45,917 bases of DNA. Source: Escherichia phage 2725-N35. The stretch lies in sequence record MN840485.1. The stretch is one strand, 5' to 3'. The notes under the pieces are model-generated. The model had not been told where the DNA came from and searched no databases. It was given only the letters and a program-made list of their open reading frames with translations. Below are positions 1 to 45,917 of the stretch, piece after piece; within the stretch, counting starts at the first letter, position 1; every line of letters begins with the position of its first letter. A program made the position numbers and the translations under genes.

Positions 1-983
1 CATCTTTAGCTAGGGCTAACTTCGAAAGAGTAATCTCCATCCATTACATCAATGAGGATGTAACCATCTTCTGTGATGACCAACTCATATTCGTAACCAG
101 TTTTGCGTGATTCGTAGAGAATTTTCCAGTGTAGATAGTAGCCATTTTATTTCTCTCTTTGTGTTTCGTTTCGATGGAGTAACTATACCCCATCTTTTAA
201 AATCGCCTTTAGCAATTCGTGCTATTTTGAAATCATTTCTTTGAATGCTGCAAGAAAACCCTCACGTCCGTAGGCGACTGCCGAGAAACCGCCTGATTCC
301 ATTACACTTTTCAGGAATGCCTTCTGTTCTTCGCTGACTGGACTTGCTTGAGTTTTGCCAGCCCTCTTTAGCTCTATAGCTCCGAAAGGATACTTACCTC
401 GAAGTGATTCAGGAATAAGAAACATACAGTCTGATACGCCTTTTAGAAGCCCCTTAGCCTGGTCTTTTCTTGCTTGACCAATGGTTTTCTTTCCCTCATT
501 CACGCAATGGAAAAATACCATATCTGGGTAGTTATACTTAACCCAATCAGAGCAAAAGATTTGTTCGTCATCCTCTTTAGGGCATGACTTAACCGGACCA
601 GGGTAAAACTCAATGTAATCTTCTTTATCTGTAATCTTCATAATAATTCTCCAAAATTCTTAAACGCTATCACGTCCTTTCCTTTTGCATTCCGGCGATG
701 CGTAACCTGAACTGGCGCACGGAACTTATCTACGTTAGTCATAATCATTCTGGCATTTTTAAGCCTGCCAATTCGCGCCGCTTCCGTGCGATTCTCAATA
801 TGAGCTAAGCAAAAGTTCTTCCAGAGCACACTGCAAACTCGATGGTCTGATTCTGGATTAAAGAACTCCCAAGCGTTAAATCTCTCTCCGTTATGAGCCA
901 TTATATTGTACTTAACTACAATGCCTGTCTGATTCTTACTTAACCCAACTTGAAAATCATAAACACGAAGGTAATCACCACGA
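1..983. repeat. Terminal direct repeat, copy A (matches ~44935..45917); contains the 3' end of the helicase gene, the VRR-NUC gene, one promoter element and the 5' part of a small gene
   Basis: Window start and end are collinear and near-identical; ORF-track proteins at 222..641 and 45156..45575 are identical. Two 2-bp indels between copies: 'gtagaga' at ~115 vs 'gtaga' in copy B, and 'ctttag' at ~5 vs 'ctttgtag' in copy B. Confidence 0.9.
222..641 (-). CDS. VRR-NUC-like (PD-(D/E)XK superfamily) nuclease
   Basis: 139 aa with 'FHCVNEG...', 'GAIELKRAGK' and an E/K-containing core typical of VRR-NUC; start overlaps the helicase stop (ATGA). Confidence 0.6.
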   Translation of the reverse strand: MKITDKEDYIEFYPGPVKSCPKEDDEQIFCSDWVKYNYPDMVFFHCVNEGKKTIGQARKDQAKGLLKGVSDCMFLIPESLRGKYPFGAIELKRAGKTQASPVSEEQKAFLKSVMESGGFSAVAYGREGFLAAFKEMISK

Positions 984-2632
984 CGATACATTTTGCCAGT
1001 CAGGTTAGCATTTGGGTCTTTAAGCATCTCGCCGCATTCCCTGCAAACCTTTGCTGCTATGTCATTGCGAGCGCCACAACCCTTTTTAATTACCGATTTA
1101 GTTTGCGCGTCGGTAATGTCTTCGCAAATTGTGAACTGAAAGAAGTGATCGCACCTAACGCCATCAATCTTATTGCTACAGCGACGAGCGAATGGGGAAT
1201 TTTCATATCCACATTGCGGACACTGACGAACCTCATCGCCACCTTTTCTTGAGGATTTAAACTTCTCAGCCTGAATCTCTTCAATAATTGGGTCAAAGTA
1301 AAGCTCAGCCATATCATCAAGTGCGCCAGCAAAATCCAGCACAAGGTGATCTTCTTTATGAAAACCAGCATCAATATGAGATCTCTTAAGTTTGCGCATC
1401 CCCCTACCAAGAAGCTGAATCATAAGCGTTAGGCTGCCAATCTTGCGTAGTATGACGCTAGTATCCCACAGCGGCTGGTTTACGCCCGTAGTAAGACAAC
1501 CAATCTGGAATATTATTTTGTACTTACCTGTCTGGCAATCAGCTAGAATCTCCCTGCGCTTCCTCTCTCCCGTAGAGTCTGTGATGATGGCGTAAGGGTA
1601 TCCATCTGGTAGTGCCGCAGCAGCCTCATCACAATGGAGTTTGCCAGCGCATGTTACCAATGCAGCGTTACGAGTCTCGAGTATTTTCACAACAAAACCC
1701 ATTATCTTTTGGGTCATTGATTGGTTGTCGTGAATCTTTGCAGCCATTGCATCCATTTCTTTCTTGCTGAAGTCTTTAACGCCATCGCTTCCGTCTGGCG
1801 CAAACTCACTAAGGTCATAACCCAGGTCACCAACTTCACCATAAACAGTAGGAACAACGAAGCCCAAATCAACCAGATAATTTGTTGGCACCTGAATCAC
1901 TGTTTTGCGCCAGAATCCACGGATGTTTGGGTTGCTAACGACGATATGATCGTTGTTACGATACGGGCTGCCAGTAAGACCGAATATACGAAGCTCACGC
2001 CCGTACTTCTCACGACAACGACGTTTCATCTCGGTGATAATTAGCGTGTACTGCGCACGACCAGTACCAAGCAATCCTGTGTTTACGCCATCCTTAAAAA
2101 CCATATCGCCTTTCTTTGTGCTCATTTGCTCAAATGTTTCTTCATTCTCTTCAGCCTCCACGATATCCATGTGATCGACCATGTGACACTCATCTATAGC
2201 GATAACTGCCGGAACATAGTCACCAAGCCCCTTAAACAAGCCGTTGGCTGCCGTACCCTCACTGGCCACTATAGTTGGGTGGTAAACTGATTTGACGTTA
2301 AGGCCAGCGCAATAGACGCTATTACGTATGCCGAAATTACGAAGCTCTTCTGAGTTCTGGCTGATAATCTCTGACTGGCGAGAGAGAACCATATAGGGAA
2401 GCCCAAGCTGCTCCATGCGCTTACCAATCATGGCAAGAATGATTGTCTTACCCGCAGATACTGAAAGGTCTGCGATAAATGGTGCCTCGTACTTGCCAAT
2501 AGCCTTTCCGATTGCATCAAATGTCACGCACTGGAATTCGTAAGGGGTTATCTCTCCAAACTGATAGTCTTTCTGAATCTGTTTGATTCTTTCTTTATCG
2601 AAATTTGCAACCAGCTTCTCGATAGGCAACAT
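638..2632 (-). CDS. SF2 DNA helicase with C-terminal Cys4 zinc ribbon
   Basis: 664 aa; Walker A-like 'SVSAGKT', DExH-like 'IDECH', and C-terminal CPQCG...C..C / CRECG cysteine pairs. Confidence 0.8.
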   Translation of the reverse strand: MLPIEKLVANFDKERIKQIQKDYQFGEITPYEFQCVTFDAIGKAIGKYEAPFIADLSVSAGKTIILAMIGKRMEQLGLPYMVLSRQSEIISQNSEELRNFGIRNSVYCAGLNVKSVYHPTIVASEGTAANGLFKGLGDYVPAVIAIDECHMVDHMDIVEAEENEETFEQMSTKKGDMVFKDGVNTGLLGTGRAQYTLIITEMKRRCREKYGRELRIFGLTGSPYRNNDHIVVSNPNIRGFWRKTVIQVPTNYLVDLGFVVPTVYGEVGDLGYDLSEFAPDGSDGVKDFSKKEMDAMAAKIHDNQSMTQKIMGFVVKILETRNAALVTCAGKLHCDEAAAALPDGYPYAIITDSTGERKRREILADCQTGKYKIIFQIGCLTTGVNQPLWDTSVILRKIGSLTLMIQLLGRGMRKLKRSHIDAGFHKEDHLVLDFAGALDDMAELYFDPIIEEIQAEKFKSSRKGGDEVRQCPQCGYENSPFARRCSNKIDGVRCDHFFQFTICEDITDAQTKSVIKKGCGARNDIAAKVCRECGEMLKDPNANLTGKMYRRGDYLRVYDFQVGLSKNQTGIVVKYNIMAHNGERFNAWEFFNPESDHRVCSVLWKNFCLAHIENRTEAARIGRLKNARMIMTNVDKFRAPVQVTHRRNAKGKDVIAFKNFGELL

Positions 2633-3213: not shown

Positions 3214-3268
3214 TAAACAATGGCACTTTGCATTATGTATAGTGCCTTTATTGTTTATGGAGGTAATT

Positions 3269-4195
3269 ATGAGTCACAATGATAAGAACGAAGTGATAGC
3301 CAAGATGAAAGGGATGTGGAGTGAGTTCTACTCATCGCATCTTGGATGGACAAAGGAGAATCTCAGCAAGAAACATGGTCCGTGCCCTTACTGCTTTGGC
3401 AAGGATAGGTTTCGCTTCACTGATGAGTTAGGTCAAGAAAAGGGAAATGGCGCAGCAATATGCAACCAGTGTGGAAATGATTCTGGTGTTGGTTGGGTAA
3501 TGAAGTGTTCTGGAATGAGTTATAGTGAAACAATAGATACGCTTGGTGATTGGCTGAATCTCGTTCCAGTAGAGGTTATATCAAAAGCAAACAAAAGAGC
3601 TTCAAGAACATCACCATACAAAATGGGCGCTCAGATTGATCACGAAAGATGCTTAGAGATAATGGAAAGGACGGAAAGAGTAGAATCAACTCCTCTCAGT
3701 ACATACGAGGGTATCTATAGCGAGTTCGGTTTTGATGTTGGCAGGACGAAATCAGGTGAATTAATCCACGCAGTTCCGTGCTTTATGGCTTATAGCGACG
3801 GTATATCAGAAGAAATGTGTAATGTAATGTTTATCAATGAAGAGGGAGATGTTAGTTATGCTGCAAAAGATTATACTCGCCAGTCTATTTCTGTTATTGG
3901 TTCCCTTAAGGATGATGAGTACGCTTATCTGGTCGATAATCTCATTGACGGCTATCATGTTCACATTGCTACTGGCAACCGCTGCGTGCTTGTTTGCCAC
4001 TCCAGTTACAACATGGAAATGGTTGCTTACGCGCTTAGAAACTACAAGTTACGCATCGCTTGTACTCGCAGCGATTTTGATTTACTCGCCGTTGCTGACG
4101 ATCGCAATCTTGATGTTGTAATGCCAAATAATGATAACCACTTCAAATCAGGAATAAGAAAGCGAATATACAAGGCGAGCGAATTACTAGACTAA
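3269..4195 (+). CDS. DNA primase (zinc-finger type), putative
   Basis: 'CPYCFGKDRF...CNQCGN' zinc-binding motif; sits next to the helicase; start moved to the ATG preceded by GGAGG (track ORF begins at GTG 3242). Confidence 0.55.
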   Translation: MSHNDKNEVIAKMKGMWSEFYSSHLGWTKENLSKKHGPCPYCFGKDRFRFTDELGQEKGNGAAICNQCGNDSGVGWVMKCSGMSYSETIDTLGDWLNLVPVEVISKANKRASRTSPYKMGAQIDHERCLEIMERTERVESTPLSTYEGIYSEFGFDVGRTKSGELIHAVPCFMAYSDGISEEMCNVMFINEEGDVSYAAKDYTRQSISVIGSLKDDEYAYLVDNLIDGYHVHIATGNRCVLVCHSSYNMEMVAYALRNYKLRIACTRSDFDLLAVADDRNLDVVMPNNDNHFKSGIRKRIYKASELLD

Positions 4196-6853: not shown

Positions 6854-7282
6854 TCAGAACGGGATATCGTCGTTGAATTGCTGTTGTTGCTGTGGCTGTG
6901 GCTGATATTGCTGTTGTGGCTGCCGCTGTGGCTGTTGCTTAGGCTTCTGCTGGCTGCCAGAATCCACGCGCTGACTAAACTCAAGTCGTGGGTTGTTCAT
7001 GTTAATCGTTACGTAAGTCTTACCATCTTTATCTCGAACATCAACAGCCAGACTTTCGGCGCTAACGCTAACAACCTTACCCTCTTGAAATGCTTCATTG
7101 TACCAATCTAGCATTGACTCTTTCGCGAAGAAGACTGCGCGATAGTTACTATACTGAGTCTGACCATCTTTATCTTTGTATCGCTCACTCAAATCAACCG
7201 CAAACATTTTCCAGGTACCATTAGCATTCTGACCTTCTTTAGTGAATGGAGCGCGGCGAATCTGACCAGTAATTACGTGCAT
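6854..7282 (-). CDS. ssb: Single-stranded DNA-binding protein
   Basis: OB-fold-like N-terminus, Q/P-rich linker, C-terminal acidic tail ending DDIPF. Confidence 0.9.
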   Translation of the reverse strand: MHVITGQIRRAPFTKEGQNANGTWKMFAVDLSERYKDKDGQTQYSNYRAVFFAKESMLDWYNEAFQEGKVVSVSAESLAVDVRDKDGKTYVTINMNNPRLEFSQRVDSGSQQKPKQQPQRQPQQQYQPQPQQQQQFNDDIPF

Positions 7283-35478: not shown

Positions 35479-36027
35479 CTACTTAGTCTCCTTAATCATT
35501 TCCTGATAAGCATTAATCATTGTAACAGCGCCCTTAAGTTCTTCACCTTCCAAGCCAGCAACACTTGGTGACAGCTTGAGCAGTCTAGACTTGAACTTTT
35601 CAATGATAGCCGCCTCTTTCTCCGCTTCCTGCTTTTTCTTTTCGCGACTCCCAGTCCAGTGCGCGCCGTTCTCAATGTATATGACCAGGTATTTATCAGC
35701 GCCATCACCGTCGAAGCTACCGGGCCTTGTTTGCTCTCCGTCATCATCAATCCAGATGAACTTATATCTCGCTCGCTTATTAGCATCGCGAAGCTCTGTC
35801 ATTCTCGACACTGTGTTATAGATGTATGAGTTCTTTAGTTCCGGCATCGCCCTATCTGCCAGGTTGAGGATCTCACTAGTCTCTTCGTCATACACCATTT
35901 CAGGGTATTCCTTGCCTCGAACCAGTTTGAATATCTGGCTAACCGGAACTTTAAACTCACCACTCTCGGACACCATCGCGTTGCGCACCATCTCACGGAT
36001 AACTTCACCTAGTGTTACTTTCTGCAT
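35479..36027 (-). CDS. Hypothetical early protein
   Basis: 182 aa; first gene leftward of divergent region B. Confidence 0.5.
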   Translation of the reverse strand: MQKVTLGEVIREMVRNAMVSESGEFKVPVSQIFKLVRGKEYPEMVYDEETSEILNLADRAMPELKNSYIYNTVSRMTELRDANKRARYKFIWIDDDGEQTRPGSFDGDGADKYLVIYIENGAHWTGSREKKKQEAEKEAAIIEKFKSRLLKLSPSVAGLEGEELKGAVTMINAYQEMIKETK

Positions 36028-36039
36028 GTTGATACCTCG

Positions 36040-36110
36040 TTTGTTTTACTTCGTTTCAGTGACTGCTATATTGCCATCTATTTACGTGTCGGTCAATGTA
36101 TATTTTCGTC
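36040..36110 (-). promoter_or_regulatory. Promoter for the 36027-leftward operon (TTGACC -35-like, TATAGC -10-like)
   Basis: Minus reading: ATACATTGACCgacacgtaaatagatggcaaTATAGCagtcactGAAACGAAG; resembles P-box downstream half. Confidence 0.4.
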
Positions 36111-36305
36111 TATTTTATCATGGATACGCTTTTTGCCTCCAGAGGCCCCTCCATTGCTGGTTGTAAATGTGCCGTATCCGATGTGTACAGATTTTTGAAG
36201 CCATTCCCTATATATGTGCCTTTTATTCCTACAATGCCATCCATTTCTGACAGGTGTCAGAATATCTGCGCGGAACATATCAATAATCTCACCAATTACC
36301 GGTAT

Positions 36306-36372
36306 ACACAGTATACATATATATAATAATAATAATAATAATAAAGTAAAAGGTTGATATATATAGATATTA
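36306..36372. repeat. AT-rich element with (TAA)n microsatellite, copy 2
   Basis: acacagtatacatatatataataataataataataaagtaaaaggttgatatatatagatatt; matches copy 1 at ~9712..9775. Confidence 0.8.
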
Positions 36373-36479
36373 TATTGTATATCGTGTGTATATATCGCGT
36401 AAAAACGTAGGTTAGTGGTCACTAACTTTTGTGACGACACTGAGTATACGGAGGATACGCGTATATCCGTGAGGCTCCC

Positions 36480-36660
36480 ATAGATTGGTAAAAATCAACT
36501 TGTATGGTAGTCAATCCATCTTTCATTCACTCACTCACCACTTCATTTCACTTTTCGCAACAATCAAAAACATCATTGCATCTGAAGCAATATTGCTATA
36601 TGCGCAATAATCATGTGAATCATTGCAATATCTGCAACAATCCATAAATCTGACGAATGG
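36480..36660. repeat. Cluster of short direct/inverted repeats (iteron-like) in divergent region B
   Basis: Repeated GCAACAATC, CATTGCA(A)T, palindrome GCAATATTGC, and tcattcac/tcatttcac direct repeats. Confidence 0.5.
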
Positions 36661-36715
36661 CACTTTTTGCTAAAGACATGCGGGGATGGCGAGGATATAG
36701 TTAACTCATCAAAAC
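36660..36715 (+). promoter_or_regulatory. P-box promoter for the rightward small-gene operon
   Basis: AATGGCACTTTTTGCTAAAG, 23 nt, TATAGTTAACTCATCAAAACGAGG. Confidence 0.6.
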
Positions 36716-36727
36716 GAGGGGATAGAA

Positions 36728-36955
36728 ATGAAAGTAAAGGTTATTGATCTTGATTTCTGTGGTGATATTTATGATGACGAGTATGAGTACTATGGCATCA
36801 ATAAAGGCGGTGTGTATGAAGTGGTAACTACTTATCCTGACCTTGAGGCAATTGTAGTGGTTAACAAGTATTGCCGTAATGTTATGCTCTACAATAATGA
36901 GGTTGAGATCTATGAAGAAAAAATAAAGATGAATTACGTAATGAGTGCGCACTGA
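36728..36955 (+). CDS. Small protein, paralog family member 1
   Basis: MKVKVIDLDF...YYGINKGGVYEV; shares MKIK..FD...YYG(I/V).(N/D)G.VY(E/D)V pattern with two downstream ORFs. Confidence 0.55.
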   Translation: MKVKVIDLDFCGDIYDDEYEYYGINKGGVYEVVTTYPDLEAIVVVNKYCRNVMLYNNEVEIYEEKIKMNYVMSAH

Positions 36956-37101
36956 TTGGGCTTAACGAAGATTACACTGACCTTGTGTTGCGCGGAAAGT
37001 TGGACATAGACTTAGCTAAGCAATTCCAGTCAGAAGATGAATTCATGTGCTGCGATGGACTTGGCTGCGTCGAATGCTTACCATTTATTTGAGGATTGAG
37101 A

Positions 37102-37275
37102 TATGAAAATTAAGATTGTTAAGTTTGATACGATTTACACAACAGATTATTACGGCATTGACATTGGCAAAGTTTATGATGTGTTCATGGATTGCATGGA
37201 TGGAAGGGTTGTAATAATTGACGGTACATCTAAGCCGCTTGTTATTCATCCTGGTGAGTTTGAGGTGGTAGAATG
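37102..37275 (+). CDS. Small protein, paralog family member 2 (~58 aa)
   Basis: MKIKIVKFDTIYTTDYYGIDIGKVYDVF...; SD GAGG; coordinates approximate. Confidence 0.45.
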
Positions 37276-37512
37276 AAAATTCGCTGCAATAACGTTATTA
37301 CAAGCACCGACAAGAAAGTATTAACACCATTCGTAAAAGGCTCTGTATACGACGCTGAGCCGCTAATCATTAACGGCAAGACAATCCCGAACGAGTGGTT
37401 GATTAATGGCGCTGAGCGACCTCACAAGCACGATTCTGGGTGGATTGCCATTTCTGGCTGGAAGGTAGGAATGTTTATTCCTGGGATTGCAACTTTTGAT
37501 GAGGTGAAGTGA
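37273..37512 (+). CDS. Hypothetical small protein
   Basis: 79 aa, overlaps neighbours by 4 nt. Confidence 0.5.
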   Translation: MKIRCNNVITSTDKKVLTPFVKGSVYDAEPLIINGKTIPNEWLINGAERPHKHDSGWIAISGWKVGMFIPGIATFDEVK

Positions 37513-37700
37513 TGAAAATTAAATTAATCAGATTTGATTCAAATCACGCAGAAGACGAGAAAGAATTCTACGGAGTGGAGAATGGAGGGGTTTACGAAGT
37601 AATGCGACAGTATGAGTCTGGCGGGGTTAGCGTTAAGACGCCTTCCGGAAAGGAGCTCCCTTTGTTTACGTTCGAGTTTGAATACATTATGGAGGCCTGA
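37509..37700 (+). CDS. Small protein, paralog family member 3
   Basis: MMKIKLIRFDSNHAEDEKEFYGVENGGVYEV... Confidence 0.55.
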   Translation: MMKIKLIRFDSNHAEDEKEFYGVENGGVYEVMRQYESGGVSVKTPSGKELPLFTFEFEYIMEA

Positions 37701-37704
37701 GTAA

Positions 37705-37866
37705 TGCTATTACCATCTGAGATAAATTATTTCGATCTTGAGGTCGTAAGTGCCTATAGCGGAAAGGGCTGGCCTTGTGGAGATTGGTTCCGAGAGGACT
37801 TGCTAGAGAGTCACGAGATTATGCTTAAGGCGATAGAAAAAGCACGAAATAGCACGAATTGCTAAA
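37705..37866 (+). CDS. Hypothetical small protein (~53 aa)
   Basis: ORF MLLPSEINYFDLEV...; stop codon is the TAA of the next P-box (TTGCTAA); coordinates approximate. Confidence 0.35.
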
Positions 37867-37905
37867 TCCATACGTGGCTTTTCCTGTATATTAACCTCAT
37901 CGAAA
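37850..37905 (+). promoter_or_regulatory. P-box promoter
   Basis: AAATAGCACGAATTGCTAAAT, 22 nt, TATATTAACCTCATCGAAACGGGAG. Confidence 0.6.
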
Positions 37906-37918
37906 CGGGAGATGTAAA

Positions 37919-38098
37919 ATGAAAGTTTACTTACTTAATGCTTATACTGACTATGACGGTTTTGAAATTTGTGGTGTTTTTGATACAGAGGAGCTAGCTG
38001 AATTACAAAAGAATATACTAATAGGCATCGATATAGAACGTGGTTATGGTCCTGATTATTATCTCATTGAAGAATTTGACGTTAAGGTAGCGATTTAA
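37919..38098 (+). CDS. Hypothetical small protein (59 aa)
   Basis: ORF MKVYLLNAYTDYDGFEICG...; SD GGGAG; TAATG overlap with the next gene. Confidence 0.45.
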   Translation: MKVYLLNAYTDYDGFEICGVFDTEELAELQKNILIGIDIERGYGPDYYLIEEFDVKVAI

Positions 38099-38262
38099 TG
38101 TTCGACAATTTTTATGACGCAATGGAAGAGGCAGTATGCCGCGCGTCACTTGATGGAAAGATTTACGGTTTAGTCCAGAAGGTTGATAGGATTGTTGTGC
38201 GAATCGTGCGCAAATCAGTACCAAACAAATTCATGTGGACAACGAAGAGATTAACAAAATGA
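38098..38262 (+). CDS. Hypothetical small protein (54 aa)
   Basis: ORF MFDNFYDAMEEAVCRA...; ATGA overlap with the next gene. Confidence 0.4.
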   Translation: MFDNFYDAMEEAVCRASLDGKIYGLVQKVDRIVVRIVRKSVPNKFMWTTKRLTK

Positions 38263-38648
38263 CTAGTACACCTACTAAAAACTTCATTAGCAAAGAAAAC
38301 GTATTATACAAGGCTCGCGTTAAAAAGGTTCACCAATGGGTTAATGGTGTCCCTGAGGAGGTTGAGTTTGAGCAAATTAAGAAGAATGGCAAATGGATTA
38401 ACCTGGAAGAACGTGGAAAGTATATCAAGACCAAAACTATTTACTGCACAAAGGTTAACCAAAAGTCAGAACTTAAAAAATACTTTAAAGAAGGGAAACG
38501 CTATCAGGTGGCACTTCATGCTGGTCTTGGTCAGTCTGCCGGTTATATTTACGATGAAGATGGTAATGCCTGGCAGCTTTACCGCAGCGAGGACGTTGGT
38601 TTTTACACTCTTTGCCAGACTTACTTATTTGAAGCTCAATACATGTAA
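38259..38648 (+). CDS. Hypothetical protein
   Basis: Track ORF 38235..38648 trimmed to the ATG coupled to the upstream stop. Confidence 0.45.
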   Translation: MTSTPTKNFISKENVLYKARVKKVHQWVNGVPEEVEFEQIKKNGKWINLEERGKYIKTKTIYCTKVNQKSELKKYFKEGKRYQVALHAGLGQSAGYIYDEDGNAWQLYRSEDVGFYTLCQTYLFEAQYM

Positions 38649-38700
38649 ATAGCACAAATTGATAATGCTTTATAAGAGGTCGTTGATATAATGGCCTCTC
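38645..38700 (+). promoter_or_regulatory. P-box promoter (variant upstream box) with perfect TATAAT
   Basis: AAATAGCACAAATTGATAATG, 22 nt, TATAAT. Confidence 0.55.
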
Positions 38701-38722
38701 AAAAACAATACGGAGATAAGTA

Positions 38723-40306
38723 ATGTTTGATTTCAACGAAGATAAACTATCTGTTGAGCAGGTTATGGCAATTGCTGCTGCGGACAATCTTCCACCTCTG
38801 CGCGTCGCTATTAATGCTAATGGCTATCGCCAGTCTCAATCATTCTGGAAAGCGCCAGTCGAGATTGATGCAGCTAATGACAAGTATCCCGTAATCTCAC
38901 TCGGTAATGACATTGATGTTGTTGGGAAGCTGTCATCTAACATCGCTCGCTCAGTTCAGTTTCCTGAGTCTTCAGCATACATGCACTTCCTTGGGTGTAT
39001 TTCAGCCGCCATGCTTGGTCGATTCACTGTTGAGTACCACGGAACTCAGCAGCCAACATCTCTTTACGTAGTAACCAGTCAGCCACCATCCACAGGTAAA
39101 TCAGCAATTAACTCGCTTTCTATTGCGCCAATGATTGCTGAGACTGAGCGGCTTAATGAAGTGCGAAAGCGTGAGCGTAAAAAGATTATGGCAAAGCTGT
39201 CTGCATTATCCAAAGAGATGAAGCAGGAAAAGTCACCATCAGAGATGGCGTCTCTCTTTGAGGAGAAAGAGGATTTAGAGGAGAAGCTGGAAAAGATGTG
39301 CGATATCGTATTTCCAGTGTCAGATACCACTCCGGAAGGTCTTGCACGAATAAACAACCGCCAGGGTAACTTTGCTGTAATCTCGGATGAAGCAACTAGC
39401 GTCAACTCACTTCTTGGCATGACCTATGGTGACGGCTCTAAGAAAACGAACAGCGAGCTCGTACTCAAGGCGTGGGATGCTGGTAACGTGTCCATTGCGC
39501 GTGCGAACGCAGAAAACAACATGAGCTTCGTTGCTATGGGATGCATCTCTGTAATTGCGCAAGATGAGACAATAAACGCAATCATGAATGCTGGTGCTCG
39601 TGGTATTGGTGTGTCGGAACGTTTTCTACTTGTGCGTGAAAAATCATTCCTTGGCGAGCGTGTATTCGTCGATGAGAATGGAGACTCAACGTATGAGCCA
39701 ATTGATGGTAGCCTGAAGGCTGACTACTTCCGCCTGGTTCACGAAATCATGAGTGAGCAAGATGTTAAGTTGACGGTAAGCAACTCAGCGATGAAATATC
39801 TCAACCGAGCACGTCAGGAAATGGAGCCGCACCTTGCAGACGGCGGTAAGTATTCACACACAATGTTGCGCGGTGCTCTTGGTAAGTTCGATAAGCAGGC
39901 TATCAAGATTGCAGCGGTTCTTCACACGGTGCGTAACTGGTTCAACCCTAGCGGTGGGAGTCCACAGAAATCAAGAGAGATTGAGCTTGATACCATGCAA
40001 GAAGCCGTCATTATGTTTCAGGAACTTAGCAAGACTTATCTTTCATCCGCTAACGCCGCTGGTCACGCTGGCGACAATGCTGAGATGAACAAGTTGATTG
40101 ATATACTAATCAAGCAAGGCAAAAACGGAAAGGGCGTAGTTGGTATTCGCTCGTTGTATGAAGCTGCTCGCAAGGTTAAGCCATTCGAAGCTCAGGCTGG
40201 AGTGATGACGAAGATTAAAGATCACTTGCTGCCAATGCTTGATGAGAAAAACTACACGTGCCTGATTGGTGATAAGGTTTACATTAATCCGCGATTGCTG
40301 GGGTGA
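38723..40306 (+). CDS. P-loop NTPase of unknown function (Walker A/B)
   Basis: 527 aa; Walker A 'SQPPSTGKS', Walker B-like 'FAVISDEA'; a coiled-coil-like insert lies between them. Confidence 0.6.
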   Translation: MFDFNEDKLSVEQVMAIAAADNLPPLRVAINANGYRQSQSFWKAPVEIDAANDKYPVISLGNDIDVVGKLSSNIARSVQFPESSAYMHFLGCISAAMLGRFTVEYHGTQQPTSLYVVTSQPPSTGKSAINSLSIAPMIAETERLNEVRKRERKKIMAKLSALSKEMKQEKSPSEMASLFEEKEDLEEKLEKMCDIVFPVSDTTPEGLARINNRQGNFAVISDEATSVNSLLGMTYGDGSKKTNSELVLKAWDAGNVSIARANAENNMSFVAMGCISVIAQDETINAIMNAGARGIGVSERFLLVREKSFLGERVFVDENGDSTYEPIDGSLKADYFRLVHEIMSEQDVKLTVSNSAMKYLNRARQEMEPHLADGGKYSHTMLRGALGKFDKQAIKIAAVLHTVRNWFNPSGGSPQKSREIELDTMQEAVIMFQELSKTYLSSANAAGHAGDNAEMNKLIDILIKQGKNGKGVVGIRSLYEAARKVKPFEAQAGVMTKIKDHLLPMLDEKNYTCLIGDKVYINPRLLG

Positions 40307-40308
40307 CC

Positions 40309-40395
40309 TATGATTGAATCGATACTATTGATAATACTTGGTTTTGTTGTAACAACTTCGATGCTTCTATTTGTTTTGGCAGTGCTCGGGAGTTA
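40309..40395 (+). CDS. Tiny hydrophobic peptide (~28 aa), possible membrane peptide
   Basis: MIESILLIILGFVVTTSMLLFVLAVLGS; tightly packed between neighbours; coordinates approximate. Confidence 0.3.
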
Positions 40396-40398
40396 ATT

Positions 40399-40734
40399 AT
40401 GTTCATCCTTGACTTGTACCGGTTCTGCGAATCTTACAGCTATTTCACGCGCCAGCATTTGGCGCGATTCATCTACCAACACAAGGACTCCCAGAGATTC
40501 AGCAAGTCGGCAGGCTTATCGCATAGAGAGTTTTGCAGCGCTGCTTCAAAGGAGTTCTGCGCAAAGATGCTTAGTGCAGGTTACATTGATGGTAAGTGCG
40601 GTGAGTTTTCTAGCAATGGTAGCTTGAAGAGGCCATTTGAGTTTAACTTCGAGGCGCTTAACGGGTATCAAAGCAAGTACATAAAAGAGATGATGAATAT
40701 AGGAACAATGACTGACGACGAGTTATTTAGCTAA
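40399..40734 (+). CDS. Hypothetical protein
   Basis: 111 aa, last gene of the rightward operon. Confidence 0.5.
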   Translation: MFILDLYRFCESYSYFTRQHLARFIYQHKDSQRFSKSAGLSHREFCSAASKEFCAKMLSAGYIDGKCGEFSSNGSLKRPFEFNFEALNGYQSKYIKEMMNIGTMTDDELFS

Positions 40735-40736
40735 AA

Positions 40737-40765
40737 ATATAGCCTCCATTAGGAGGCTTTTTTAC
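40737..40765 (+). terminator. Rho-independent terminator ending the rightward operon
   Basis: GCCTCC-atta-GGAGGC then T6. Confidence 0.8.
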
Positions 40766-41138
40766 GTCTTAAGATTGATGCCATGAGAATTAAAACCAGC
40801 AGGCCCATAGCTCCTGTTCCAACCCACGGAAGCGCTGATGATTCGTTATTGGTAATCTCAATCTTTTCGGCTGTGATTGTAGAGGCCTTAATCGAGTTGT
40901 CAGCAGTCTTTTTCCCGCTAGAGCTATCCAGTGATCCGACCTTAGAATCTTTAACCGTGGCTTCACTGGAGCTGCTTGAGTCAACCTTGTTCGTTAACCC
41001 AACTCCAACCTTGTTATTCTCTGCACCAGCCTGCGCACTAATTTCCGGCTTACTGCCAATCAATCCGGTCAGTGCATCAGTCGCTGAACATCCAGATAAA
41101 GCTAAGCACATTACTAACGCTGCAATCCGCTTAAGCAT
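40749..41138 (-). CDS. Unimolecular spanin (u-spanin), putative
   Basis: N-terminal lipoprotein signal 'CLALSGC', Ser-rich periplasmic region, C-terminal transmembrane helix; immediately after the endolysin. Confidence 0.65.
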   Translation of the reverse strand: MLKRIAALVMCLALSGCSATDALTGLIGSKPEISAQAGAENNKVGVGLTNKVDSSSSSEATVKDSKVGSLDSSSGKKTADNSIKASTITAEKIEITNNESSALPWVGTGAMGLLVLILMASILRRKKAS

Positions 41139-41599
41139 AACTTAATCTCCTCATTCCTGCGGTTTACCAAGCCCTTAACCACAACCTTCTTGCCATTAAC
41201 GGTAGCTTTATTCCAAAGACTCAAAGACTTACAACCTTGCTCCACTTTACCCTGGTTGATTAGCCTTACAGCCGTAGACTTCCTCATCGCTGAGCCGCCA
41301 ACATTATAGCTAAAGCTGATTAACGCTGCCCTTGTCTGCGGTGCGATTGTGTAGGTAACTGCATCCTGAACATACTTAGCATGAATCTGGATGTGCTTCT
41401 CCAGTAAGTTCCGGCACTCACTATTGCTGTAGGTCTTACCCCAAACAACGTCAGGGCCAGTAACGCCAGAGCAAACAGTAGGGATTCCAGCAATGTCCAT
41501 GTAAGGCTTGTTTTCCACACCCTCTACGAGCTCAATAATCGGTGCTGCGATGTATATTGCCGCAGCCGTAGCCGCGCTAATTAGCAGCTTCTGCTTCAT
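41114..41599 (-). CDS. SAR endolysin (phage-21 R-like lysozyme)
   Basis: N-terminal signal-anchor-release helix; 'GKTYSNSECRNLL' and 'TRAALISFSYNVGGSAMRKS...INQGK' closely resemble P21 R. Confidence 0.85.
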   Translation of the reverse strand: MKQKLLISAATAAAIYIAAPIIELVEGVENKPYMDIAGIPTVCSGVTGPDVVWGKTYSNSECRNLLEKHIQIHAKYVQDAVTYTIAPQTRAALISFSYNVGGSAMRKSTAVRLINQGKVEQGCKSLSLWNKATVNGKKVVVKGLVNRRNEEIKLCLSGLQR

Positions 41600-42154: not shown

Positions 42155-42215
42155 ATGTGGTAATTATGCCGCATTTCTACGGCATGCGTTAGGCAAAAAG
42201 TGCTATTAACTAAAC
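42155..42215 (-). promoter_or_regulatory. P-box promoter for the lysis cassette
   Basis: TAATAGCACTTTTTGCCTAAC, 22 nt, CATAATTACCACATAGAAACGAG. Confidence 0.55.
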
Positions 42216-43336
42216 ATTTCCGGGCGGCAAGTAAATCGTCCAATCTCACCAAACTCAGGACTATAAATTATCACCGAAGCCTGTCGGTAAGAGCGATAAC
42301 CTCCGTTAGCACTGTACGCATCTTTCGCTCCAAGCTGGCCGTGTGATTCATCAATACCCAGATTTCCTTCCGTAATAGTTTGATGGTGATAGTGGCCTGA
42401 ATGGGTGTAAACATACTCTGATTCACCAAATGCTTTGCGATGGTCACGAGCCAGTGCTGATAGTCGGGTATCAGGCTTTTTGAGTTCGTGCCCATGGCAG
42501 TAACCAAGCAGTGTCTTCCCAAATTGCGTTACGTGAAGCGCAGCGGGGGACGTATCAACATTAACTCGAGGCTCATCCATATAGAAAGCTGCCATTGCAG
42601 CACGAAGCCAAATCATACCTGAGAGATCGTGGTTACCTGGAATAATCTGAACCTCAACCTCGGCGTGCTTATCAAGCATACGGCTAATTGCTCGACGTGT
42701 CGATCGCACTGCTACGTAAACAAGTTTGTGATAACGGCTATCTTGATCAAGAACATGACGACTGGTTGGTGTTACCGCTTCCATTCCGTCAGAGTGAAGG
42801 AAGTCACCCCCAATCAGCAATACAGCTTTCTTGGAGTTGGGGGCCTTTGCAACCGCGTAATCAAAGTAATCATTAAGAACTCTCTCAGCGATTTCAGTAC
42901 TATAGTTCTCACCACACTCAGCATGATGAGCCATTGCTCCAATGTGGAGGTCGAACACGGGGTAAAGGCTTAAAGTATCTTCCCATAAACCAACCCTTAA
43001 AGCTTTAGCTTTCTCACGCGGCAACTCATCAGTTAGGGCCTGAATTGCCTGAAGCATCATCTCTTCTTGCTTCTCCTTGTCGATATCTGATTTAACCCAC
43101 TGTTGCTTAATCTCGCCATCAGCACCAATTAAGCTGGATACGCCTTTAACTGCATAGCCCTGAGGGATTAAGTTGCTTACATCGCGACCATGCCCTTCGC
43201 CTTGTTTAGCTAATTTACTGCGACGCAATTCAACGTTGCGAATGTTCATTCCGTACTTCTCTGCGATTGCCTTGTTGGTCATGCCATTTGCTAACTCTTC
43301 GCGCAATTGTTCGTTGGTGATTTTTGCGGTTGCCAT
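42206..43336 (-). CDS. HTH domain fused to a calcineurin-like metallophosphoesterase
   Basis: N-terminal 'LANGMTNKAIAEKYGMNIRNVELRRSKL' (LuxR/sigma-r4-like HTH); phosphoesterase motifs DLH, GGDFLH, GNHD, HGH, HSGHYHH. Confidence 0.7.
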   Translation of the reverse strand: MATAKITNEQLREELANGMTNKAIAEKYGMNIRNVELRRSKLAKQGEGHGRDVSNLIPQGYAVKGVSSLIGADGEIKQQWVKSDIDKEKQEEMMLQAIQALTDELPREKAKALRVGLWEDTLSLYPVFDLHIGAMAHHAECGENYSTEIAERVLNDYFDYAVAKAPNSKKAVLLIGGDFLHSDGMEAVTPTSRHVLDQDSRYHKLVYVAVRSTRRAISRMLDKHAEVEVQIIPGNHDLSGMIWLRAAMAAFYMDEPRVNVDTSPAALHVTQFGKTLLGYCHGHELKKPDTRLSALARDHRKAFGESEYVYTHSGHYHHQTITEGNLGIDESHGQLGAKDAYSANGGYRSYRQASVIIYSPEFGEIGRFTCRPEMFS

Positions 43337-44882: not shown

Positions 44883-45079
44883 TCTGATACCTCATCAAAT
44901 TTTTCGCCAAATTCGTTTTTAACAGTTTCTAAATCATCTTTGTAGCTAGGGCTAACTTCGAAAGAGTAATCTCCATCCATTACATCAATGAGGATGTAAC
45001 CATCTTCTGTGATGACCAACTCATATTCGTAACCAGTTTTGCGTGATTCGTAGAATTTTCCAGTGTAGATAGTAGCCAT
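44879..45079 (-). CDS. Hypothetical small protein
   Basis: Start set at ATG (MATIYTGKFY...) 30 nt downstream of the P-box -10; track ORF extends to 45127. Confidence 0.45.
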   Translation of the reverse strand: MATIYTGKFYESRKTGYEYELVITEDGYILIDVMDGDYSFEVSPSYKDDLETVKNEFGEKFDEVSE

Positions 45080-45116
45080 TTTATTTCTCTCTTTGTGTTT
45101 CGTTTCGATGGAGTAA

Positions 45117-45162
45117 CTATACCCCATCTTTTAAAATCGCCTTTAGCAATTCGTGCTATTTT
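45117..45162 (-). promoter_or_regulatory. P-box promoter (archetype; duplicated at ~182..228)
   Basis: AAAATAGCACGAATTGCTAAAGG, 22 nt, TATAGTTACTCCATCGAAACGAAAC; VRR-NUC stop TAG lies inside the box. Confidence 0.6.
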
Positions 45163-45575
45163 GAAATCATTTCTTTGAATGCTGCAAGAAAACCCTCACG
45201 TCCGTAGGCGACTGCCGAGAAACCGCCTGATTCCATTACACTTTTCAGGAATGCCTTCTGTTCTTCGCTGACTGGACTTGCTTGAGTTTTGCCAGCCCTC
45301 TTTAGCTCTATAGCTCCGAAAGGATACTTACCTCGAAGTGATTCAGGAATAAGAAACATACAGTCTGATACGCCTTTTAGAAGCCCCTTAGCCTGGTCTT
45401 TTCTTGCTTGACCAATGGTTTTCTTTCCCTCATTCACGCAATGGAAAAATACCATATCTGGGTAGTTATACTTAACCCAATCAGAGCAAAAGATTTGTTC
45501 GTCATCCTCTTTAGGGCATGACTTAACCGGACCAGGGTAAAACTCAATGTAATCTTCTTTATCTGTAATCTTCAT
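45156..45575 (-). CDS. VRR-NUC-like nuclease (duplicate of 222..641 within the terminal repeat)
   Basis: Identical 139-aa translation. Confidence 0.6.
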   Translation of the reverse strand: MKITDKEDYIEFYPGPVKSCPKEDDEQIFCSDWVKYNYPDMVFFHCVNEGKKTIGQARKDQAKGLLKGVSDCMFLIPESLRGKYPFGAIELKRAGKTQASPVSEEQKAFLKSVMESGGFSAVAYGREGFLAAFKEMISK

Positions 45576-45917
45576 AATAATTCTCCAAAATTCTTAAACG
45601 CTATCACGTCCTTTCCTTTTGCATTCCGGCGATGCGTAACCTGAACTGGCGCACGGAACTTATCTACGTTAGTCATAATCATTCTGGCATTTTTAAGCCT
45701 GCCAATTCGCGCCGCTTCCGTGCGATTCTCAATATGAGCTAAGCAAAAGTTCTTCCAGAGCACACTGCAAACTCGATGGTCTGATTCTGGATTAAAGAAC
45801 TCCCAAGCGTTAAATCTCTCTCCGTTATGAGCCATTATATTGTACTTAACTACAATGCCTGTCTGATTCTTACTTAACCCAACTTGAAAATCATAAACAC
45901 GAAGGTAATCACCACGA
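45572..45917 (-). CDS. Helicase gene, 3' portion (duplicate, truncated by the window end)
   Basis: Translation identical to the C-terminus of the 638..2632 product. Confidence 0.6.
   Translation of the reverse strand, partial: RGDYLRVYDFQVGLSKNQTGIVVKYNIMAHNGERFNAWEFFNPESDHRVCSVLWKNFCLAHIENRTEAARIGRLKNARMIMTNVDKFRAPVQVTHRRNAKGKDVIAFKNFGELL

Follow-up and report, generated by a model that had tools for sequence, protein, structure and literature searches.

Escherichia phage 2725-N35 (sequence record MN840485.1) carries, between positions 38259 and 40734 of the 45,917 nucleotides (nt) analysed here as a whole (the window), four closely packed open reading frames (ORFs), the largest of which encodes a 527-amino-acid (aa) P-loop nucleoside triphosphatase (NTPase). 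Do these genes form a single operon, and do they serve replication initiation, DNA translocation or, by means of a membrane component, exclusion or anti-defence, as a sequence-only reading of the window had left open? Comparison with known phages shows the cluster to be an ordinary one, corresponding to genes 7, 9 and 10 of T1, which make up the familiar replication-helicase module of T1-like coliphages; the 527-aa protein can be regarded, with a probability of roughly 0.8, as the replicative DNA helicase of this T1-like phage. The four ORFs put forward by the earlier reading are all present in the ORF list, every one of them on the plus strand:

38259..38648, plus strand: 129-aa protein of the T1 gp7 family, phrog_2684 (ORF list; PHROG E = 1.1e-47)
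38723..40306, plus strand: 527-aa DUF3987-family helicase, predicted AAA+ (MCM-like), orthologue of T1 gp9 (Pfam, PHROG, AlphaFold)
40310..40396, plus strand: 28-aa hydrophobic mini-ORF MIESILLIILGFVVTTSMLLFVLAVLGS on an accessory insert of ~90 nt (ORF list, comparison of loci)
40399..40734, plus strand: 111-aa protein of the T1 gp10 family, phrog_2794 (PHROG E = 1.6e-55)

At the family level, the 527-aa protein matches Pfam DUF3987 (PF13148) with 139.8 bits (E = 1.7e-40), the curated gathering cut-off of this family being 27 bits, and its residues 81-430 align with positions 3-349 of the 364 in the profile. The match to phrog_2373, labelled 'DNA helicase', extends over practically the whole protein (E = 4.7e-259; residues 3-527 on positions 2-515 of 515). 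The protein is 57% identical to T1 gp9, and its best aligned segment reaches up to 98% identity to proteins annotated as 'DNA helicase' in public T1-like phages. An alignment of 29 homologues, with identities down to 35%, was used to follow conserved residues, and the AlphaFold model built on the same set attained a predicted local distance difference test (pLDDT) value of 89.6 and a predicted template modelling score (pTM) of 0.87. Alignment and model together locate the following elements of the protein:

39077..39103, plus strand: Walker A, SQPPSTGKS, residues 119-127 (sequence, alignment)
39101..39298, plus strand: charged antiparallel helical hairpin growing from the Walker A helix, residues 127-192 (model, alignment)
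39371..39394, plus strand: Walker B, FAVISDEA, residues 217-224 (sequence, alignment)
39488..39625, plus strand: beta-hairpin before sensor 1 (255-270), sensor-1 strand VIAQDE (277-282) and SERF (298-301) (model, alignment)
40070..40303, plus strand: C-terminal winged-helix domain, residues ~450-527

The Walker A and Walker B-like motifs recognized by the earlier reading are thus placed at residues 119-127 and 217-224; Q120, P121, P122, S123, G125 and K126 of the former and E223 of the latter are invariant in the 29 homologues. Between them lies a segment of 66 residues (127-192) containing 14 K/R and 14 D/E, which is modelled with a pLDDT of 87-96 as a long helix of 41 residues (126-166) and a return helix (172-191). 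This coiled coil is a feature of the family, since the Pfam DUF3987 model spans the segment without any large gap and all 29 homologues keep it; the long charged insert pointed out beforehand does therefore exist, although within this family it is not unusual. In the predicted structure, the elements follow one another as strand 115-119, Walker A, two helices, the Walker B strand (217-221), the beta-hairpin, VIAQDE, SERF and LRG (382-384), and it is by position in this predicted AAA+ topology that the roles of sensors and arginine finger are given. R260 of the hairpin, R300 of SERF and R383 of LRG are all invariant in the alignment, and by position R300 is a candidate arginine finger and R383 a candidate sensor-2 arginine. 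MCM (minichromosome maintenance) proteins have their SRFD arginine finger at the place where this helicase has SERF.

The best structural matches of the model are MCM-type AAA+ ATPases, followed by RavA, BchI, the SCCmec helicase Cch, ComM and BrxL, and the fold of the AAA+ core is closest to the ATPase domain of MCM, that is, to the MCM-like AAA+ helicases or 'superfamily 6'. Its predicted fold puts the 527-aa protein among the AAA+ ATPases, in the MCM-like branch. Superfamily 3, which had been suggested as an alternative and comprises the P4 alpha, D5, Rep and E1 types, was ruled out by structure prediction in view of these matches. The likeness to archaeal MCM, eukaryotic MCM2-7 and MCM8/9 includes the hairpin before sensor 1, the S-x-R-F at the place of SRFD and the C-terminal winged helix. 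Unlike MCM, however, the phage protein has a long coiled-coil hairpin after the Walker A helix and lacks an N-terminal oligonucleotide-binding (OB) fold and zinc domain, the model showing ~100 helical residues instead. Given this helical N-terminus, and given that Pfam MCM yields no match to the helicase at E <= 1, the protein is therefore considered to work in the way of an MCM-type motor, although it does not belong to the MCM family itself. Searches for solved structures by sequence returned nothing meaningful with the single helicase sequence, with the helicase profile or with the profile of the 111-aa protein; NCBIfam gave no useful matches for the proteins of the cluster, and no solved structure of the DUF3987 family was found. 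It is also confirmed that this NTPase is distinct from the superfamily 2 (SF2) helicase at 638..2632, as had been stated, since the latter matches Pfam Helicase_C.

Two published studies bear on the function of DUF3987. A link of the family to MCM emerged from profile comparison, and a role as the replicative helicase of phages was predicted for it, its members having a C-terminal winged helix and being frequently fused or adjacent to primases; the essential dns protein of phage N4 belongs to it (Kazlauskas et al., PMC4889955). More recently, in 2025, the PriCT-DUF3987 protein AgaPH was demonstrated to unwind DNA 5' to 3' in a manner that needs Walker A and Walker B, and to bind its own primase-polymerase (PMC11724360). 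AgaPH and N4 dns share with the helicase described here the Pfam family, both Walker motifs, the C-terminal small/winged-helix domain and the link to a primase. They differ in that AgaPH has an N-terminal PriCT domain and is encoded next to its own primase-polymerase, and in that N4 dns carries a fused primase domain of the archaeo-eukaryotic type, whereas the helicase of 2725-N35 stands alone and a zinc-ribbon primase is encoded elsewhere in the genome. In agreement with the published association, relatives at 35-40% identity have a DUF3987 gene that overlaps a zinc-ribbon primase gene (locus L084) or precedes one (L086), the neighbours of the DUF3987 gene in such relatives including an SF2 helicase, a DUF3799 exonuclease, ERF and a protein binding single-stranded DNA (SSB). 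Viral structural relatives of the helicase likewise include fusions of 700-800 aa with primase-polymerase or Toprim primase domains.

According to this reading, the helicase would form a ring that unwinds phage DNA at the fork with ATP, and would act with two proteins encoded at a distance in the window:

3242..4195, plus strand: primase with a T7-gp4-type zinc ribbon (Pfam Zn_Ribbon_Prim E = 8.1e-12), the presumed partner of the 527-aa helicase
6854..7282, minus strand: phage SSB, with the C-terminal end ...FNDDIPF

No DNA polymerase was found, either among the ORFs of the window or in EC3a, a relative with an annotated genome. Because the phage encodes none, it is taken to rely on host DNA polymerase III, for which the helicase would unwind the fork. 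In E. coli, SSB contacts replication and repair proteins of the host through its C-terminal tip, which the tail of the phage SSB, NDDIPF, matches. This tail fits with a phage that may borrow the host replisome.

In phage T1 (NC_005833), genes ST7, ST9 and ST10, of which ST9 is annotated as 'DNA helicase' and the other two as hypothetical, agree with the cluster in order, in strand and in the convergent lysis cassette downstream. Besides the helicase, the 111-aa protein (50% identity) and the upstream 129-aa protein (49% over its C-terminal domain) have clear T1 counterparts, the N-terminal half of gp7 being different. T1 differs in carrying an HNH endonuclease, ST8, between genes 7 and 9 and no mini-ORF between 9 and 10. 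The synteny of the cluster is kept in 80 of 80 loci from IMG/VR. The tight packing reported from the sequence holds downstream of the helicase, whose stop codon is separated by 3 nt from the start of the 28-aa peptide, which in turn ends 2 nt before the start of the 111-aa protein; the helicase gene itself is set apart from its upstream neighbour by 74 nt. The four ORFs are nevertheless not one conserved unit. Conservation extends to three of them, the equivalents of T1 gp7, gp9 and gp10, and a related phage can do without the first. What was found is, for the most part, clear homology to a replication protein with conserved operon partners, the very outcome against which the sequence-only reading had set its own interpretation; of the roles it listed, replication is retained as the general area, in the form of a family predicted, and in one case demonstrated, to consist of helicases working with primases, and exclusion or anti-defence with a membrane component is not. 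The cluster ends at the following element:

40741..40758, both strands: bidirectional intrinsic terminator dividing the cluster from the convergent lysis genes

Beyond it, the minus strand encodes a spanin (40749..41138), an endolysin and a holin, and the same arrangement is annotated in EC3a and T1.

In 76 of 81 related loci the start codon of the 111-aa protein lies 0-10 nt past the helicase stop, which suggests that the two proteins are probably co-produced. The best AlphaFold model (pLDDT 87.1) contains helices at residues 2-11, 18-27, 31-38 and 42-60 followed by strands at 63-66 and 69-72, and it is the only confident one of five; on this model the protein is predicted to be a winged helix with an acidic tail. 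The first 75 residues are basic (isoelectric point, pI, 8.8) and the last 36 acidic (pI 4.7), and D106, L109 and F110 of the D..LF motif in the tail are invariant in the family. This family, of the phrog_2794 type, is narrow: a profile search in 1.84 billion proteins retrieved 24 cluster representatives, almost all of them small. Two very long matches to the profile consist of many short stretches and look spurious. No informative fusion of the domain was detected among the 1.84 billion representatives, and no homologue was found beside distant DUF3987 helicases. The protein would be a lineage-specific accessory made together with the helicase, to which it most likely serves as an adaptor or as a partner that binds DNA or RNA.

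The junction between the helicase and gp10 genes also houses the 28-aa mini-ORF. Its product is indeed strongly hydrophobic, with a mean Kyte-Doolittle hydropathy of 2.3, as described from the sequence; the proposal that it is the component of a membrane system fails, given that the ORF is missing in 77 of 81 related loci. In 76 of the 81 the insert of ~90 nt is lacking and the next start codon directly abuts the helicase stop. About 11 phage records span the insert, as compared with 798 that contain the upstream gene, and the ORF is retained in JulesPiccard, T145P1 and IME253. A comparison with IME253 counts 12 differences at the first codon position, 5 at the second and 13 at the third, together with one in-frame 3-nt indel; since this pattern is typical of a hydrophobic coding sequence, the ORF is probably coding. 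The peptide is thus probably real but accessory and not part of the helicase machinery, and with the insert that carries it, stop and start codons still follow closely on each other from gene to gene. Other phages have unrelated material at the same site. Sd1 and phiEB49 carry a different hydrophobic mini-ORF there, in phiEB49 as a tandem duplication in which the final ~20 nt of the helicase gene are repeated ahead of each copy, and one Klebsiella phage has an HNH endonuclease. The junction is an insertion hot spot (40307-40398 in the window; 3388-3589 in locus L011, 6584-6684 in L013, 6584-6674 in L017 and 6563-7101 in L076), at which two unrelated families of hydrophobic mini-ORFs of 27-35 aa are observed.

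Upstream of the helicase, the 129-aa protein belongs to a family present in 798 phage records, where it is invariably labelled hypothetical. An alternative GTG start at 38235 would give 137 aa; the ATG at 38259 is favoured because homologues begin with M(T/A)TT(I/L)TKN. The protein is homologous over its full length (41% identity, E = 4e-28) to a 128-aa protein of phage SECphi27, encoded at LT961732 6629..7015 directly upstream of the DUF3987 helicase of that phage and matching the sequence printed in Table S2 of Stokar-Avihail et al. It has been reported that the SECphi27 protein alone is toxic in cells carrying the Mokosh type I defence, and that phages escaping Mokosh bear the mutations E7fs, Y109C or C102*, the frameshift and nonsense escapers being able to grow (bioRxiv 10.1101/2022.08.27.505566). 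Because those escapers grow, the SECphi27 protein is dispensable and not an essential helicase loader. The mutated Y109 aligns with a conserved tyrosine. By homology, the upstream gene can be assigned to the Mokosh type I trigger family, bearing in mind that trigger activity was shown for the SECphi27 protein only and that SECphi27 belongs to Tempevirinae, whereas the present phage belongs to Braunvirinae. No newer literature on the Mokosh trigger was found. The C-terminal ~75 residues are conserved and the N-terminal part is replaced between lineages; the distance to the helicase gene ranges among relatives from 77 to 786 nt, the gap often holding inserts. The 129-aa protein would be a dispensable early protein. 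A relationship of its C-terminal domain to the small early ORFs described below, as paralogues, is unsupported (hidden Markov model E >= 1.5).

The gap between this gene and the helicase contains one further element:

38675..38699, plus strand: stem-loop agaggtcGTTGATATAATggcctct, ending 23 nt before the helicase ATG

Most lineages of Drexlerviridae have at this place a stem of 8-12 bp ending 15-24 nt before the helicase ATG (seen in loci L001-L052), with arms that differ or covary between lineages and loops resembling TAnAAT; a group of Klebsiella phages has no hairpin. Stems were scored by searches in each lineage with shuffled controls, and in the 19 lineages tested the longest stem averaged 8.9 bp against 5.7 bp in the shuffles. 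RNAalifold on a MAFFT alignment of the leader gave no pairs, variable loop lengths shifting the arms out of register, and Rfam gave no match in 35900-41200. As G.T pairs lengthen the stems and A.C pairs do not, the structure is attributed to the RNA in the mRNA (plus) sense. The loop of the window is a perfect extended -10 element (TGATATAAT), a property confined to the closest relatives (7 of 82 loci), and a sigma-70 promoter is possible there, a -35-like hexamer lying 22 nt away. Six hairpins with TATAAT-like loops occur elsewhere in the window, about the number expected by chance on a rough estimate, so the hairpin does not recur as a signal throughout the genome. It may serve as a translational operator, as a site of processing or stabilisation, or as a promoter element.

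It is important to weigh what speaks against the replicative reading of the 527-aa protein. In four otherwise well-conserved homologues (P0096, P0103, P0116 and P0120) the Walker B aspartate D222 is replaced by alanine (ISAEA). The genes for primase and helicase are not neighbours but stand ~8 kb apart on the circular map of 44.9 kb. The phage possesses the SF2 enzyme as a second helicase, and we infer which of the two drives the fork. The polarity of the helicase is not predictable, the tested DUF3987 member moving 5' to 3' whereas MCM runs 3' to 5'. No biochemical or genetic test of a T1-family helicase was found in the literature, where searches on the host replication genes needed by T1 and on T1 gp9 also returned nothing. 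For the 111-aa protein the five models are at variance, with pLDDT values spanning 46 to 87, and the roles of that protein and of the coiled coil are guesses. Alternatively, the DUF3987 ATPase could be a motor for recombination, repair or fork restart, comparable to MCM8/9, ComM or RuvB, with the SF2 helicase or host DnaB unwinding the bulk of the DNA. MCM8/9 and ComM are in fact among the structural matches, in distant relatives the gene adjoins ERF and the DUF3799 exonuclease, and the phage does have a second helicase. This motor is nonetheless unlikely: the partner of the SF2 helicase is a VRR-NUC nuclease (the pair spans 222..2632), an arrangement that suits repair better than fork unwinding, and the repeated fusion or adjacency of DUF3987 to primases is the signature of a fork helicase.

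That the ATPase is instead an initiator, binding and melting the origin like P4 alpha or the Rep of staphylococcal pathogenicity islands, with the 111-aa protein as its specificity factor and host DnaB loaded afterwards, appears very unlikely. The C-terminal winged helix of the ATPase, the second winged-helix protein encoded directly after it and the presence of ORC and Cdc6 winged helices among the structural matches are in its favour; yet the AAA+ core is far closer to the MCM motor than to initiators, no iteron-like repeats were found beside the genes, those in 35900-36800 being short and weak, and the sole DUF3987 member tested is a true helicase (PMC11724360). An exclusion or anti-defence system made of the four genes, with the hydrophobic peptide in the membrane, was also contemplated by the sequence-only reading, and it draws on the strong hydrophobicity and probable translation of the peptide and on the genetic interaction of the upstream protein family with Mokosh. 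It must be judged extremely improbable, however, because the many natural phages without the peptide (77 of 81 loci) already suggest that it is dispensable, the upstream protein is a defence trigger and not a known inhibitor, the flanking genes do not accompany the DUF3987 helicase in distant relatives, and the helicase sits in replication modules elsewhere. PADLOC gave no meaningful match either, its only one being a JetC coiled coil over the charged helices at E = 0.01, which is noise, with none for the flanking proteins. The replicative helicase remains the preferred reading, and an extension of it can be imagined in which helicase and 111-aa protein are a self-contained fork-assembly pair for a phage without polymerase: the acidic D-D-E-L-F tail, resembling that of SSB, would let the 111-aa protein recruit proteins of the host replisome, either that protein or the helicase itself would set the dose of helicase through binding of the leader hairpin, and the junction would be a hot spot where transmembrane mini-genes arise by junction duplication. 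Taken as a whole, this scheme is speculative and rather doubtful.

Regarding the genome in which the module resides, the window is nearly the whole of a T1-like siphophage genome (Drexlerviridae, Braunvirinae). The cluster region has 93% DNA identity to Veterinaerplatzvirus T145P1 and ~87% to the Escherichia phages ZL19 and CEB_EC3a and the Piccard BASEL phages, all of the same family and subfamily. The two window ends form a direct repeat (~130-983 = 45064-45917, offset 44,934), leaving ~44.9 kb of unique genome; this repeat is either a terminal redundancy or an overlap left in the assembly of a circular genome. Owing to it, the VRR-NUC gene is present twice (222..641 and 45156..45575). ERF, a PDDEXK exonuclease and SSB are also encoded in the window. 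Between two divergent operons, positions 36028-36727 form a 700-nt AT-rich non-coding stretch (GC 0.37) in which several sites resemble promoters and repeats, direct as well as inverted, are short and weak; the stretch may be the site of early promoters or of an origin. The small early ORFs that follow in one operon on the plus strand (36728..36955, 37103..37276 and 37509..37700) are mutual paralogues (blastp E 1e-7 to 1e-10) with the common start MK(I/V)K(I/V) and the common motif YG(I/V)..G.VY(E/D)V. On the minus strand, a 376-aa metallophosphatase ('DNA repair exonuclease', 42206..43336) resembles by eye, in its N-terminal part, a SECphi4 protein in which an in-frame duplication was found in escapers of the qatABCD defence (Stokar-Avihail et al., Table S2).

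For the biology of the T1-like phages, these results change little, since the core gene was already annotated and its kind had been explained by the replication assignment of 2016. The upstream gene, formerly 'unknown', can now be labelled by homology as a member of the Mokosh type I trigger family that lies directly upstream of the helicase across Drexlerviridae. The helicase/gp10 junction and the leader hairpin constitute small, testable regulatory puzzles, and phages of the T1 type offer a handy system in which the first structure of a DUF3987 helicase and a measurement of its polarity could be obtained.

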